From positions 20,362-84,361 of the forward strand of contig CAZYGH010000010.1 in NCBI GenBank assembly GCA_964647595.1: a stretch of 64,000 nt of DNA, read 5' to 3'. Made by a program: the position numbers and the translations under genes. The notes under the pieces were generated by a model, which saw only the letters and a program-made list of their open reading frames with translations, made no database searches and was not told the DNA's origin. Shown here piece after piece: positions 4,903-13,753 of the stretch. The DNA is from an uncultured Verrucomicrobiota bacterium (GTDB lineage Bacteria; Verrucomicrobiota; Kiritimatiellia; CAIQIC01; Lenti-01). The number at the start of each line of letters is the position of its first letter. Position 1 is the stretch's first letter.

Positions 4903-5775
4903 ATGGCCACTTTACGATTCACCATGATCTTGAAATCGATTTTAACTCCACTTCTGCGGCGCTTTGTGCAGCTTGTTTCGCTGGTTGCGCTGAACAGCTC
5001 GCTGGCCAGCGGGCAGGCCAAGTGGCTGTGCATGCCGGTGATGAATTGTCATTCCTGTGCACTGGCGTGGTTTGCGTGCCCGATTGGGGTGTTTATTCAT
5101 TATGCGGGATATCGGGTATTCCCGTTTCTTGCGTTCGGTACGCTTTTGTTAGTGGGAGTGCTGTTGGGGCGATTCTTGTGTGGATGGGTGTGCCCGATGG
5201 GATTTTTGCAGGACTTGCTCTACAAGATTCCGGGCCGGAAACTCACCCTGCCCCGTTGGACAAAGTACATCAAGTACGTCCTTCTGGTGGTGACCGTGGT
5301 ATTGACACCCTTATGGTTTGGGGAAGATACCTTGTGGTCGTTCTGTCGCGGTTGTCCGGTTTCGGCGATGCAGGCGACGTTGCCCGGTCTGATTGGAGGG
5401 GAAGGCGGACCCTTGCCCCTGCGGACTCTCGTCAAATTGGGCATTTGGGTTGCGGTGTTGTTGCTGGTGGTGGTGAGCCGTCGTGGATTCTGTCGAGTGC
5501 TGTGTCCGATCGGCGCGTTGCTGGCGCCGTTTAATTGGATTAGCTTTTGGCGCGTGAAACCCGTGGAAGGGTGCGTTGGATGCAAAAAGTGCGACACCAC
5601 CTGTCCAACGCAATGCGCTCCTGCCCCTGAGATGATTGCGGGGCAAGCTCCCAGCCGCCAAACCGAATGCGTGGGTTGCAACGATTGTCGCAGCGGGTGT
5701 CCTGTGCGGAAAAAGAAACCTTCCAAAGGCCCCATTGCGCCGCCGCCGCCAAACATGGTAAAAGATCCAGCATGA
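4903..5775 (+). CDS. NapH/MauN-like membrane polyferredoxin (4 TM, CxxCP motifs, two C-terminal 4Fe-4S ferredoxin motifs)
   Basis: CGWVCPMGF and CRVLCPIGAL motifs in TM loops, plus CVGCKKCDTTCP and CVGCNDCRSGCP. Alternative start at ATG 4924. Its stop overlaps the start of the next gene (ATGA). Confidence 0.75.
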   Translation: MATLRFTMILKSILTPLLRRFVQLVSLVALNSSLASGQAKWLCMPVMNCHSCALAWFACPIGVFIHYAGYRVFPFLAFGTLLLVGVLLGRFLCGWVCPMGFLQDLLYKIPGRKLTLPRWTKYIKYVLLVVTVVLTPLWFGEDTLWSFCRGCPVSAMQATLPGLIGGEGGPLPLRTLVKLGIWVAVLLLVVVSRRGFCRVLCPIGALLAPFNWISFWRVKPVEGCVGCKKCDTTCPTQCAPAPEMIAGQAPSRQTECVGCNDCRSGCPVRKKKPSKGPIAPPPPNMVKDPA

Positions 5776-7757
5776 GCAGGTGGAAACATGGATTGATGAG
5801 GATGATGCCCCTCGCCATTTTGTTTGGCTTGCTGACGGGGGTGTCCGATGCGGCAACGTTTTCACTGGAATATCGCACGGATGGGAAATCTGCTGGATTC
5901 TCGTTGCCGCTGGGGGAAAGCGAAGTCCGTTTCAAGAAGGAACCCAACTACGTAGGTAAAGACGTGGTTCGGTGTGCCCTGTATGTCTCTCCCGATCAAA
6001 AAGAATTTATCGGATTTGCCTGCGATTCCGAAGGATCGACGTTGTATCTCGATTTGAATCGCAATCTGGATTTGACGGACGATCCGGAGGGTATCATTCA
6101 CTCGACCTCGGAAGGTTGGGGAAATTCTTTTGAACAGGTGGCCATCTCTGTTGAGCAAGAAGGCCGTCGCCGTGACATGCTGGTGGACATGACGATTTAT
6201 GGTGACCAATGGGGTCGATATGAGGTGAAGTCTTCATGGGAAAGCTCCTCGGTCCTCATTGGCGAGAAGACATTTCGAGTGTCCATTGTAGACGATGGAG
6301 ATGGTGTCATCACGGCGCAGGATGTCTTGTTTCTGGAACCGATCGAAGAATTCCAGGAAGAAGGTGCCGAAGGAATATCGGTGGAATTGAAGGCTCCGAC
6401 CACGTTGGTTCTCAATGGGTTGCCGTATGCATTGAACTACGCACTGAGTTCCGACGGGAAAGCGGTGGCATTGTCCGTCGATCCGAGATCCACCCCGTTG
6501 GTGGAGGTTGAGATGAAGGGGCATGGGGTTGAGCGCATTGTCATGCAGGACGAAGCCTTGGCCTCTGTATACTTGGGTCCGTCCTCCATCCTTCAGATTC
6601 CACCGGGAAACTATTACGGTGACGTATGGGTGCGGATGGGGGAAGGAAAGAAGAGCAGCTTGTGGAATGCCGGGAATGTTCCCCTTCGCGTCAAAGGTGG
6701 CTCGGGGCGGGAATCCTGGCTTGTGGGCGGGCCCATTGTCAGCAAACTGACCAGCTCGATTCCAAGCAATCGGATTCGGTTTGATCAAGCGACGATGGGC
6801 GCGGGTGGCGAAAAATATACGCCGGACAGTTTTTCAGGAGGGGCCATTGGTCAGCCGAAATTGCGTATCAAAAAAGCGGGCGAGGTCATCCACGTCGGCG
6901 AATTCGAGTATGGATGAGGCGGGACCTGTTCGTACTCATGGAGAGTACCTTTCAGTTTATTGGGTTCGTTAGAATGCTCGGTCTTTTTCGAAGGCGAGAA
7001 CGGGGACCTGATCACGTCCGAGCCCCTGATGGTCCACATTACGCTCTTCACCAAAGTGAAAGGTGTGTTGTTTTGGCTGGTTCTCCTGCCATTCCTGCTG
7101 TTGAAGGAAAACCGATCGCGCAAGGTTCTTTGGGCATTTTTGCCCTGTGCTGTTTGGCTTGGAATTGCGTTTGGACTCGAAATGGGTGTGGGCATACCCA
7201 GCGAAGTGATGGTTCCGGTGCCGATGATTTTATGCGGGCTATTATTGGCTGGCGCGCGTTTCCAGCGGTGGAAGGGTGGGGGCTCGCTTCTTGGGACGGT
7301 GTTGTTCGCCGCGCTCTTTCATGGGGTTTGGATGTATATGGGAAATATAGAAAATTTTCCATATTCCGCCATCGCTTCCGGGGTGTTGTTCCTGTTGGTG
7401 TTGGTTTCGCTTGTCCTTGCCCGACTGGCTTGTCGCGGAAAATATTCCGTGGTGAAGCTATCCCTCTTTCTGTTGCCCGTGGTTTTGGCGGCGACGGTGG
7501 TATTCGTTTTTGCCAGCGGGCTTCTGATCGCTCTGACACAAGGCGAATTGGGCAGCGCTATCGAGGCCGAGTTTCTTCTGGCGATGATCATGCCGATTGC
7601 GATGGCTGGGCTGATCGTTTACGGGATGCTGATGTCTTTCCTCTTGGTTCCGTTTTTGTCGGAATTTCATCGCGATCGTCTTTGCAACCTGTTGAAGCTA
7701 CGGCGGGATATTCCCCCGGTCCTCGAGCCGCCGCCGATGCCCTCCACACCATCTTGA
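5772..7757 (+). CDS. candidate selenoprotein, paralog 1: signal peptide + ~380-aa periplasmic domain ending FEYG-U(TGA 6915..6917)-GGTCSYSW, continuing in frame into a ~280-aa, 7-TM domain
   Basis: The ORF track splits it as 5667..6917 and 6960..7757; both are in the same frame with no other stop between them. ATG 5772 overlaps the upstream stop. The motif around the TGA is conserved with two paralogs, and a hairpin lies 14 nt after the TGA. Confidence 0.6.
6915..6950 (+). promoter_or_regulatory. SECIS-like element: UGA + 14-nt spacer + hairpin GUACUC-AUGGA-GAGUAC
   Basis: Perfect 6-bp stem at 6932..6948 with loop AUGGA. Spacing and loop are the same as in the two paralogs, whose stems differ by compensatory changes. 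Confidence 0.65.
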
Positions 7758-7835
7758 AGCGCTGGTGCCTTTCGGCCTCTCATGGCCGACGTATGTGTGC
7801 AGTCTCGAATCCCACCCCTGCAGAAGGAGCCGTCC

Positions 7836-11752: not shown

Positions 11753-11797
11753 GAGGGGCAGGATGCTGGATGGAAGTGGAGGAGTCAAGTTGGCTTC

Positions 11798-13753
11798 CTA
11801 TGCAAGGAGTTGATCGATTCCCTTCACCAGACCTGCCAACAGCCAGCGAATGAAACACAGGAACCATTGCCAGAGGGTCCATTCGGCGGCGGGTGTCGTC
11901 GAGGGTAGGGTGGATGGAGTTTCGAATTCCTCGGCGTTTCCTATAGCCTTCGGAAGGATGAAATCATGCGGGGAAACCGTGCACGCAAAGGGACCCGCCG
12001 CATATTTGCATGCGATTCGGTATGGACCAGGGGTGAGGGGGCCACGCCATGTGGCCGAGCAGGTGAATCCTCATCCATACTCGAATGAGCCGGATGTGAT
12101 CAATTCCCCGTCGGGCTTAATGATTCGATAGGCGGGTTCCTTTGGACAGTTTGATTGGCGAACAGATGTTTCGTGCTGAGTGCGGGAGCCTGAAATACGC
12201 CGGAGGTCTGTAATGATTTCGTCTCGATGGCCGCGGAGCAAAAACGACATGCGTAGGGAACCGGCGGCCACCGCCCGTTCACGAGCAGAATCGGCGATTT
12301 TCACGAGGCTTTGCAGGGGTTCACCTACATCCAGATGGGCCGAGCCGTTGTTCGGAACGGCCACCGCAGGATTTTCGCCGCTTCCTGCCGCGCTGAGAAC
12401 CCACTGGTCTCCCCACGCGTCTTTCTTCAACAGGGAATACGTGAGCAGGCGCCATTCTCCGGACGGAACCGGGACTTTGTTCCCTGTGTCCACCATCATA
12501 AGACCTTTGCCCTTGGAGGAAATCAGGTTCATCGACTGCATGGAGTTGGGGAGTTCCAGAGTCCCCACATCACTTTCTCGAGGTTGCAAGAGGAGAGTGC
12601 CCCGTGGAAGGTCCAAATGAACATCAAAGAGATGATCGCCGACGATCAAGGAATTGCCAAAAAGAAGAGAATTTTTTCCCGAGAAATAGTTATTCCGGGT
12701 GATCAGGAAGGAATCGCCACGGGGATAGAGCCGTTGATTTGGCGTGTCTGCGCCTTCGGGGAGCTCGATGGTGTCTCCAAAGAGAGCATTGCCCGTGGCG
12801 TCGCCAAGCGCCACGCGATATCCAATGCCATCTAGCATAAACTCGCCCATGTAGGCGCAGGAGGGCATCGCGTAGAGAATCATGTTGCCCAGATTTCTCT
12901 CATCCGGCTGGTCTGACTCAGAAAAGGAGCCATTGAGGGTCAGGGTAAATCGATACGGTTGTACGCGGCCCTTTGCGGCCACTTGAATGTCGACGGGAGA
13001 AAAGGTGTAGTAAAAAGAACCCTCGCTAAAAGTGCGCTTGGAGTTGACCGCAATCGGTTCCTCATCGGTCAAGTCGCGATTTCCGTTTCGGTCAAAGTAA
13101 ATACGGTCATAGAAAGGCTCGTCTTCGTTTGTCTGATCCAGAATGGCTAGAAAGGTTGAACCACCCAGTTCGATAGGGCAATAGAGGGGTTCCGTTATGG
13201 TGAAGGCGGGAAACTTCCAATCGCCGCTGGGCGGCGTGGTGGCAAGAGGGTGATGTCCGTATCCCCCCGGACAATAGGCGGCGTTCTGCTCTGGAAAGGC
13301 CTGATAGAAAAGAGGAATTTCAATGCCTGCCTCGGTTTGGCGCGCTCGTTGAAAACGGGCGGAATATCCCGTCAGGTCTTCGGGGATGATCAAACGGGAA
13401 TGATAGATTCCATCCTCTTCTCTGATTAGCCGCAGACTTTTCCAGTCACTAAACGTATCCCGACCGGAATTTTCACCGCCCACCACCTTGAAGTAATAGT
13501 CAACGGTTCCTTCCTCCAAGGAGATTGTTTTTGTCCAGACGCCGTTTTCATTCTTCATCAGCGAATCGTCCGTCATTTCCCCATGATTGAAAGTGCCCAG
13601 AAGATAGACGCGTTCGGCATCGGGTAGGAGAATGGAGAAGTCGACATCCTGCGGGAGTGCGATGGAAGAGAGGACGGACGCGAGCAGGGCTCCGAGGCTC
13701 CAAAGAGCTTTCTGTTTCCGATGCAGATTCCAACTAGGTAGCGCCGCTTTCAC
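11798..13753 (-). CDS. candidate selenoprotein, paralog 3: signal peptide + CBM48/E-set-like N-domain + large domain ending FEYG-U(TGA 12071..12073)-GFTCSATW + 90-aa tail
   Basis: ORF 12071..13921. The probable start is the GTG at 13753, giving a signal peptide KAALPSWNLHRKQKALWSLGALLASVLSSIALP. The in-frame extension past the TGA to the TAG at 11798 was translated by hand and aligns with paralog 2. Confidence 0.55.
12038..12073 (-). promoter_or_regulatory. SECIS-like element: UGA + 14 nt + hairpin GGCCAC-AUGGC-GUGGCC
   Basis: Perfect 6-bp stem (plus-strand 12040..12056), same offset from the UGA. Confidence 0.6.

Follow-up and report, generated by a model that had tools for sequence, protein, structure and literature searches.

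The Locus and Its Three Candidate Read-Through Genes

The window discussed here, a 64,000-nt stretch of contig CAZYGH010000010.1 from an uncultured bacterium of the Verrucomicrobiota, contains three paralogous genes that are each interrupted by an in-frame TGA and carry a small hairpin just behind it. The TGA codons are treated below as candidate selenocysteine (Sec) codons and the hairpins as candidates for the selenocysteine insertion sequence (SECIS). Both in the list of open reading frames (ORFs) and on direct reading, ORFs 5667..6917(+), 10091..11788(-) and 12071..13921(-) close with the residues FEYG followed by TGA. When translation is continued through this codon, the frame stays open for 279, 93 and 90 codons in paralogs 1, 2 and 3, respectively, and these endings and open frames, described in the initial annotation, were confirmed. 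Residues are numbered from the candidate Sec position, which is taken as 0 (G+1, C+4, P+11).

Paralog 1, of type A, is a read-through gene on the forward strand (5772..7757, +). It encodes a signal peptide, a beta-rich exported domain, the junction FEYG-U-GGTCSYSWRVP and a membrane tail of approximately seven helices. Its candidate Sec codon lies at 6915-6917(+) and its SECIS-like hairpin, GUACUC-AUGGA-GAGUAC, at 6932..6948(+). Paralogs 2 and 3 are of type B and are read from the reverse strand. Paralog 2 (9809..11752, -) combines a signal peptide, a CBM48-like N-terminal domain and beta domains with the junction FEYG-U-GFSCSATWSGH and a 93-codon tail; its UGA is located at 10093-10091(-), its hairpin, GGCCAC-AUGGA-GUGGCC, at 10060..10076(-), and the part before the UGA is identical to protein P0001. 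Paralog 3 (11798..13753, -) starts with GTG at 13753 and continues through FEYG-U-GFTCSATWRGP into a 90-codon tail, with the UGA at 12073-12071(-) and the hairpin GGCCAC-AUGGC-GUGGCC at 12040..12056(-). All three hairpins have the form first reported for them, namely, a 14-nt spacer, a perfect 6-bp stem and a loop 21-25 nt past the UGA. A window-wide scan for a UGA with a hairpin returned, as credible sites, these three and one further site in a small gene, termed CPT-U, which is considered with the partner genes.

Paralogs 2 and 3 can be compared codon by codon on either side of the UGA. The first 33 codons after it comprise 12 identical codons, 9 synonymous differences and 12 non-synonymous differences, and the 33 codons before it comprise 15, 8 and 10. 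The constraint on this pair of genes is therefore about equal on both sides of the UGA. The statement that the differences behind the UGA are largely synonymous was overstated, as the non-synonymous ones outnumber them.

Conservation of the UGA and of the Frame Behind It

The family was followed beyond the window with a site scan based on a degenerate DNA pattern for FEYG-[U/C]-G-x3-S-x2-W, which was run on one genome per species and returned at least 120 loci. After the removal of chance matches, at least 125 distinct family sites remained, and all counts for these sites given here and below hold among the matches listed. The codon at position 0 is TGA in 124 of the 125 sites and TGT in one. 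The UGA position, including that of paralog 1, is thus conserved among homologues across several phyla. The DNA of two homologues, a relative with 52% identity and a member from a metagenome-assembled genome (MAG) of the Planctomycetota, likewise contains the TGA, a conserved in-frame continuation and the hairpin, in which an A-U pair is replaced by G-C as a compensatory change.

The sequence downstream of the UGA has the properties of a coding region. A stop codon appears within 38 codons after the UGA in the same frame in only 1 of 125 sites, compared with 95 and 68 sites in the other two frames. In the region beyond the hairpin (codons +12 to +32), sequence pairs picked by nucleotide identity differ 1306, 924 and 2563 times at codon positions 1, 2 and 3, and the bias towards the third position is present inside every subtype. 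Cysteine occurs at +4 in 118 of 123 sites and proline at +11 in 108 of 123; neither residue was fixed by the search pattern. Conservation begins with the codon directly after the UGA, upstream of any possible start codon.

The tail of paralog 1 provides another view of the same junction. A search with its 279 residues against 1.84 billion representative proteins found 53 relatives, nearly all of them standalone ORFs that begin just past the UGA position and are typically 240-290 aa long. The same search found P0060, a single protein of 451 aa that reads ...GEFE-C-G-G-GGTYSNSWRVP... and then continues into the tail. It has glycine at the Sec position, cysteine at -2 and tyrosine at +4, and its ectodomain is much shorter. 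The continuity of P0060 shows that ectodomain and tail are parts of a single polypeptide. The proposal of conserved coding past the apparent stop is upheld by the open frame, the codon-position bias and the continuity of P0060, and the downstream frame is retained in 124 of 125 homologous sites.

The Hairpin as an RNA Element

In the family as a whole, the hairpin consists of a 6-bp stem and a 5-nt loop and lies 14 nt after the UGA. The loop, RUGGN, includes a Trp codon, and the stem is perfect in 112 of 125 sites. Covariation was tested in a gapless alignment of 99 distinct sites. Standard pairs fill 97.8% of the cells, compared with 69.5% after shuffling (none of 500 shuffles was as high), and when the partners are slid by 1-3 nt, pairing falls to 26-58%. 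Compensatory double changes affect five of the six pairs, in 164 cells, and the covariation score is 0.675 versus 0.14 for shuffled alignments. RNAalifold, unprompted, predicts precisely this helix, and the three window hairpins are the centroid structures of their local folds. Compensatory substitution, initially noted between the paralogs of the window, therefore preserves the stem in orthologues as well, and pairing is not lost there.

The stem spans codons +5 to +11, so the constraint on the RNA appears as covariation between amino acids. The pairs found are Tyr(UAC)..Val(GUA), Leu(CUC)..Glu(GAG), Ala(GCC)..Gly(GGC) and His(CAC)..Val(GUG), and Ser..Arg is exchanged for Arg(CGG)..Pro(CCG) as a stem pair. 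Codon choice follows the same rule. Serine at +5 is encoded by TCG in 112 of the 117 Ser codons at this position, compared with approximately 20% elsewhere in the same genes; its third base, G, pairs with a C of the Pro+11 codon, and both change together.

The consensus model of the bacterial SECIS (bSECIS) comprises a stem of 4-16 bp, a loop of 3-9 nt, a spacing of 16-37 nt, a minimum free energy (MFE) of -7.5 kcal/mol or lower and a G at the first or second position of the apical loop (PMC13188914). With a stem of 6, a loop of 5, a spacing of 20 nt and an MFE <= -7.5 in 125 of 125 sites, the family hairpin agrees with the geometry and energy of this model. The G rule fits the loop GUGGN, which is found in 72 of 125 sites, and the GG always occupies loop positions 3-4.

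Selenocysteine Machinery and the Genetic Code

The genes for Sec synthesis and decoding occupy the forward strand just upstream of the family genes (66..4620, +). They are selA at 66-1454, selD at 1447-2634 and selB at 2644-4620, as assigned from their translations and from the Pfam domains of orthologues. The selD product is of the Cys type (GCASK, within …KAGCASKIGQ…) and is not itself a selenoprotein; its gene overlaps selA by 8 nt. When window proteins were compared by tblastn with the 8-kb family loci, SelA was found in 14 loci, SelB in 16 and SelD in 10, and ARAGORN detected tRNA-SeC in 12 of 25 family loci checked. Such proximity would be rare for an arbitrary gene, and the linkage of the family to sel genes, observed in many uncultured Planctomycetota, Verrucomicrobiota/Kiritimatiellia, Hydrogenedentota and Sumerlaeota, is therefore strong.

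In the window, TGA ends the selD gene and the genes for a Fer4_5 protein, a double-cubane-cluster reductase (DCCP), an ATPase activase and an OprB-type porin. TGA terminates well-defined genes here, which means that the genetic code is the standard one, and an alternative code with a reassigned UGA was rejected for this reason.

The Family beyond the Window

A protein search with paralog 2, in which U was replaced by C, found 26 homologues with identities down to 22%. Of these, 24 close with FEYG and a single one with FEYA, and one entry is frame-shifted. A second search added 49 homologues, which are short fragments and useful solely to confirm the FEYG ends; 46 end in FEYG and 2 in FDYG. In the pooled count of 74 database homologues, 71 break off at FEYG, 2 at FDYG and 1 at FEYA. 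All of these homologues are labelled "hypothetical protein". One homologue, P0019 (653 aa), carries approximately 90 C-terminal residues that are of low complexity and out of frame (…RRRSIRPRTRRSGSGS…), and its end is probably due to a frameshift, or to faulty assembly, shortly ahead of the UGA region.

The hosts, all of them MAGs, belong to the Phycisphaerae, Sedimentisphaerales, Pirellulales, Thermoguttaceae, Brocadiaceae, Verrucomicrobiota, Kiritimatiellia, Hydrogenedentota, Sumerlaeota/BRC1, Omnitrophota, Riflebacteria and Chthonomonadia, and a small number of bins carry other labels. Among the matches listed, a Kiritimatiellia MAG (L008) is closest to the window. On one contig binned as a Candidatus Bathyarchaeia archaeon (L056), a bacterial-type member with UGA and hairpin was observed together with a DCCP homologue; the contig was probably placed in the wrong bin, and the member would then not be archaeal.

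Several subtypes can be distinguished, and tail lengths are conserved within each of them. The paralog 1 type, GGTCSYSWRVP, has a membrane tail of 267-405 aa, and the type of paralogs 2 and 3, GFSCSATWSG, has a tail of 39-96 aa. Tails of 38-789 aa follow GGTCSLSWREP, and tails of 41-54 aa follow GFTCSYSWRVP. ORF clustering additionally revealed a sister subfamily, MPFG-U-[DAG]G[TI]C[GR]Y[ST]W[RE]VP (e.g., MPFG-U-DGTCGYSWRVP), with an unchanged hairpin position (L007, L026, L083, L084, L103, L104). Its existence means that FEYG is typical of the family and not defining and that the family is wider than the scan pattern. By clustering, the family amounts to 211 ORFs in 116 loci, or approximately 1.8 copies per 8 kb on average. 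In a Hydrogenedentales MAG (L013, 1228-6341), four family genes stand in tandem within 8 kb, each with a UGA and a hairpin of its own.

Domains and Structure Models

The AlphaFold2 (AF2) model of the pre-UGA part of paralog 2 (P0001; mean predicted local distance difference test, pLDDT, 85.8; predicted template modelling score, pTM, 0.84) shows a signal-peptide-like helix followed by a chain of beta domains, with a final block of low confidence. CBM48 (PF02922) matches the N-terminal domain above the gathering score and also by fold, in paralogs 2 and 3 only. A central beta domain contains an invariant D-x-N-x-N-x-D-L-T-D loop (YFDRNGNHDLTDDE), located at residues 210-219 of paralog 2 (~11095-11124, -) and present in all homologues, which resembles a Ca2+-binding site and may act as one. 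The approximately 150 residues around Sec have no sequence relative in the PDB, with solely sub-threshold matches to immunoglobulin-like (Ig-like) and E-set domains.

The AF2 model of P0060 contains seven confident transmembrane (TM) helices, and the loop equivalent to the Sec site has a pLDDT below 50. The type-A tail forms a confident bundle of approximately seven helices for which the fold search returned no match. In paralogs 2 and 3, the last element of the tail is an amphipathic helix and not a clear TM helix.

Partner Genes

Clustering of ORFs in the family loci identified recurrent neighbours. These are the type-A membrane tail (33 loci), a NapH-like Fer4_5 protein (23), SelB (16), SelD (15), SelA (15), the double-cubane-cluster reductase (14), its ATPase activase (10) and a methyltransferase (8).

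Directly after selB, the window encodes a small membrane-anchored protein of 83 aa, the CPT-U protein (4624..4881, +), which ends in ...KCPT-UGA(4873-4875)-Met-UAG. A hairpin, GGUCAUC-CGUGC-GAUGGCC (4890..4908, +), lies 3' of the CPT-UGA, and its 3' arm includes the start codon of the Fer4_5 gene (4903). The arrangement CPT-TGA-X(1-2)-stop is present in all 22 distinct homologous sites, each with a hairpin of variable stem sequence 14-18 nt downstream. In 17 of the 23 loci with a Fer4_5 gene, the CPT-UGA gene immediately precedes it, and the 3' arm contains the Fer4_5 start codon in many homologous loci too. This suggests that Sec decoding of the CPT-U protein is coupled to the initiation of the Fe-S protein. 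The CPT-U protein matches no NCBIfam or Pfam model. Judged by its sequence, it is a candidate for a second uncatalogued selenoprotein, with a CxxU motif and Sec 1-2 residues before the stop.

The Fer4_5 gene (4903..5775, +), the partner gene in the 23 loci mentioned above, encodes a NapH/MauN-like membrane Fe-S protein with CxxxCP motifs, a Fer4_5 domain (57.7 bits versus a cut-off of 22) and a dicluster ferredoxin. It scores far below the cut-offs of the NapH models (TIGR02163, 52.5 versus 213 bits; NF007013, 51.4 versus 234). As only the Fer4_5 domain passes, the gene is described as NapH-like and not as NapH.

Between the paralogs lie the DCCP gene (7782-9026, +; NF040772, 413.5 bits versus a cut-off of 350) and a gene for a BcrAD/BadFG-type ATPase activase (9023-9802, +; TIGR00241, 228.5 bits). 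The pair recurs beside the family in Hydrogenedentota, Sumerlaeota, Phycisphaerae and Kiritimatiellia, sometimes with an S-adenosylmethionine (SAM) methyltransferase, and DCCP, activase and methyltransferase possibly act in the same pathway as the family. Paralog 3 is adjoined by a gene for an OprB-family carbohydrate-selective porin (PF04966; 14000-15046, +). Together with the CBM48-like N-terminal domains of paralogs 2 and 3, the porin hints at a glycan-related context.

A Probable Selenoprotein Family and the Alternatives

The core motif of the family is (F/M)(E/P)(Y/F)G-U-G-x-x-C-[ST]-x-[ST]-W-x-x-P, with conserved coding sequence in frame after the UGA. UGA conservation, the coding frame, stem covariation and linkage to sel genes all support the initial suggestion of a new selenoprotein family with bacterial SECIS elements. 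The three window genes and their homologues very probably constitute such a family, decoded through this hairpin by ordinary SelB-type decoding. SelB·GTP·Sec-tRNASec would bind the minimal SECIS while the ribosome sits at the UGA, and selenocysteine would be inserted. The predicted product is one polypeptide exported by the Sec secretion pathway, with an all-beta ectodomain, a selenocysteine site located within the last of the Ig-like domains and a C-terminal tail, which would be a membrane domain of about seven helices in type A (paralog 1) and short in type B (paralogs 2 and 3). Selenocysteine, usually with Cys+4, might form the reactive centre.

A number of observations weigh against this reading. 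The invariance of F, E, Y, G, G(+1), [ST](+5) and W(+8) in the 125 sites is partly due to ascertainment, as the search pattern fixed these residues. Cysteine homologues, the usual corroboration of a selenoprotein, are almost absent, with one Cys form and one Gly form (P0060). A profile of positions -15 to +40 with Cys at the Sec position had no match in 5.8 billion proteins, and a TGY pattern run on a metagenome collection gave 17 matches, all due to chance and none real. The sole TGT form among the matches listed (L117, -) is located on a 3.1-kb contig of an uncultured Pirellulales MAG and keeps a perfect GCUCUC/GAGAGC hairpin, which suggests either that Sec was replaced by Cys very recently or that the TGT is a variant of assembly or sequence. 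The family is almost obligately Sec-containing, and the near-absence of Cys forms may be why pipelines based on Sec/Cys pairs missed it. Cysteine at +4 is itself missing in approximately 4% of the members, with orthologues that read GFGFS, GGSLS, GASPS and GNSAT. The selenenylsulfide couple proposed for the U-x3-C motif is thus plausible, given Cys+4 in most sites, and not universal.

Further points of this kind concern the RNA and the machinery. The z-scores of the three window hairpins against dinucleotide shuffles are +0.73, -0.26 and +0.37, so single hairpins are not more stable than expected, and the support for the hairpin rests on covariation. The loop AUGGN, found in 53 of 125 sites and in all three window copies, lacks the consensus G on a strict reading. 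The Rfam SECIS models gave no match at the gathering threshold, or at E <= 10 over positions 4500-14000. The initial annotation placed tRNA-Sec together with selA, selD and selB upstream of the family genes; the three sel genes are there, and tRNA-Sec was not found in the 64-kb window by ARAGORN or Rfam. In related loci, tRNA-SeC is typically just upstream of selA, and the equivalent spot of the window lies before base 1.

If the UGA were a true terminator, the downstream frames would be separately initiated genes or decaying remnants. Gene callers do annotate FEYG ends and standalone tails of 240-290 aa, and they place a 62-aa ORF behind paralog 2. Nevertheless, the conserved C+4 and P+11 precede any start codon, all sites share a single frame, open in 124 of 125 of them, tails of 39-45 aa have a conserved length and no start codon of their own, and P0060 and L117 run on across the site, all of which makes termination extremely improbable. 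Hardly any more credit is due to read-through of the UGA as a residue other than Sec, whether by near-cognate Trp, Cys or Arg, by a reassigned UGA or by leaky termination stimulated by the hairpin. In its favour, the inserted residue is a prediction from sequence, the hairpin is short, half of the loops depart from the consensus G rule and Cys forms are nearly absent. It is opposed by the neighbouring genes, in which UGA is an ordinary stop, by the strong linkage of the family to selA, selB, selD and tRNA-SeC in many genomes, by the position of the loop at 20 nt, within the 16-37 nt window of SelB-type elements, and by L117, in which the sole sense-codon swap with an otherwise intact motif leads to Cys.

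The hairpin might also simply result from conservation of the peptide S-x-[ST]-W-x-x-P, with Sec inserted, if at all, through another signal. The stem does lie wholly inside conserved codons and its single-sequence folding energies are unremarkable, and still this explanation is very unlikely: residues +6/+10 and +7/+9 vary by subfamily yet always have complementary codons (TAC/GTA, CTC/GAG, GCC/GGC, CAC/GTG, CGG/CCG), 96% of the Ser codons at +5 have a third-base G, and this base changes with its partner, and pairing collapses on a slide of 1-3 nt. Somewhat less remote, although still improbable, is the idea that the UGA serves mainly as a selenium-dependent switch, which is compatible with Sec insertion. 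Low selenium would then yield a truncated soluble ectodomain ending in FEYG and sufficient selenium the full protein with its tail or anchor, both of them functional. Bacterial Sec insertion competes with termination, and the UGA stands at a spot resembling a domain boundary before diverse tails (39 aa, ~90 aa, ~280 aa in the case with TM helices, or as many as 789 aa). However, the most conserved residues near the UGA resemble an active-site motif and not a linker, and termination would leave the last Ig-like domain incomplete; the final block of the P0001 model has low confidence.

For the selenoprotein family itself, a role in extracytoplasmic selenol/thiol redox reactions or in chalcogen or metal handling is proposed only tentatively. 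The CPT-U membrane protein and the NapH-like Fe-S protein could serve the Sec centre as partners, the latter possibly as the supplier of electrons. It is conceivable, if rather doubtful, that the FEYG-U-G, CPT-U and NapH-like proteins make up an unrecognised extracytoplasmic selenium-based redox or chalcogen/metal(loid) system, which possibly includes DCCP, activase and methyltransferase, in which Sec is essentially irreplaceable and which would be the main reason that anaerobic members of the Planctomycetes-Verrucomicrobia-Chlamydiae (PVC) group, Hydrogenedentota and Sumerlaeota keep Sec decoding.

Implications

If these assignments are true, a large and often multi-copy selenoprotein family is added in phyla that selenoproteome surveys have hardly covered. 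Hundreds of "hypothetical proteins", now truncated or split into two genes, would be corrected, and the location of the sel genes in these organisms would be explained. The family would also reveal blind spots of current pipelines, as methods based on Sec/Cys pairs fail for near-absence of Cys homologues and the G rule is missed by approximately 40% of the SECIS loops. The hairpin would be a clear example from nature of permitted amino-acid pairs being prescribed by RNA structure. The family, the CPT-U protein and the NapH-like gene would form a three-gene module with a possible new periplasmic selenium chemistry.

Comparison with Known Systems

Neither FEYG-U-G nor a U-x3-C motif is listed among the 119 families of prokaryotic selenoproteins inventoried in May 2026 (PMC13188914), and none of these has a comparable architecture. 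The Sec domain is covered by no model of NCBIfam r20 or Pfam, and full-text literature searches for the motif and for selenocysteine in the host taxa returned nothing relevant, with an earlier mention elsewhere still possible. The view that no family with a FEYGUG signature had been described has held, with no Pfam, NCBIfam, Rfam, PDB or literature record found.

The archetype of bacterial Sec decoding is fdhF of Escherichia coli. It shares with the family an in-frame UGA, a stem-loop in the coding region right downstream, a small G-rich loop within the 16-37 nt window and the dependence on selA, selB, selC and selD, which is predicted for the FEYG-U-G family, with selA, selB and selD adjacent in the window. 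The proteins are unrelated, and unlike its fdhF counterpart, the FEYG-U-G hairpin is minimal, with 6 bp, no bulged U, a RUGGN loop and no match to the Rfam SECIS models. It is also so embedded in conserved codons that the amino acids covary.

With the 119 catalogued families (Table 1, PMC13188914), the new family has in common a single Sec near a Cys, a likely redox motif and mis-annotation as a truncated hypothetical protein. The catalogued families mostly have a thioredoxin fold, UxxC or CxxU motifs and many Cys homologues, whereas the FEYG-U-G proteins are large, exported, all-beta and multidomain, with few Cys forms. The CPT-U protein resembles the UXX-star and KCU-star proteins in its CxxU-type motif and in the position of Sec 1-2 residues from the true stop, which implies that the SECIS lies beyond the coding region, as it does there. 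In contrast to them, it is unmatched by NF041114, NF041211 and NF033934, is small and membrane-anchored and is encoded directly upstream of a NapH-like gene, whose start codon falls in the 3' arm of the hairpin.

The "UGC" selenoproteins of DUF1573 (PF07610) are exported Ig-like beta-sandwich proteins of PVC bacteria and Bacteroidota with Sec close to Cys. The FEYG-U-G family has no sequence match to them, and it differs in its motif, U-G-x-x-C after FEYG instead of UGC, and in its architecture. Fer4_5 proteins of the NapH/MauN/NosR/CcoG type act as electron carriers that connect periplasmic enzymes with the membrane or cytoplasm. The product of 4903-5775 shares their Fer4_5 domain, CxxxCP motifs and C-terminal dicluster ferredoxin, and its partners are candidate selenoproteins instead of nitrate or nitrous-oxide reductases. 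The decoding mechanism is apparently ordinary. The novelty lies in the family as such, which relies on Sec almost without exception, in the candidate selenoprotein that accompanies it and in the lineages that harbour the family.

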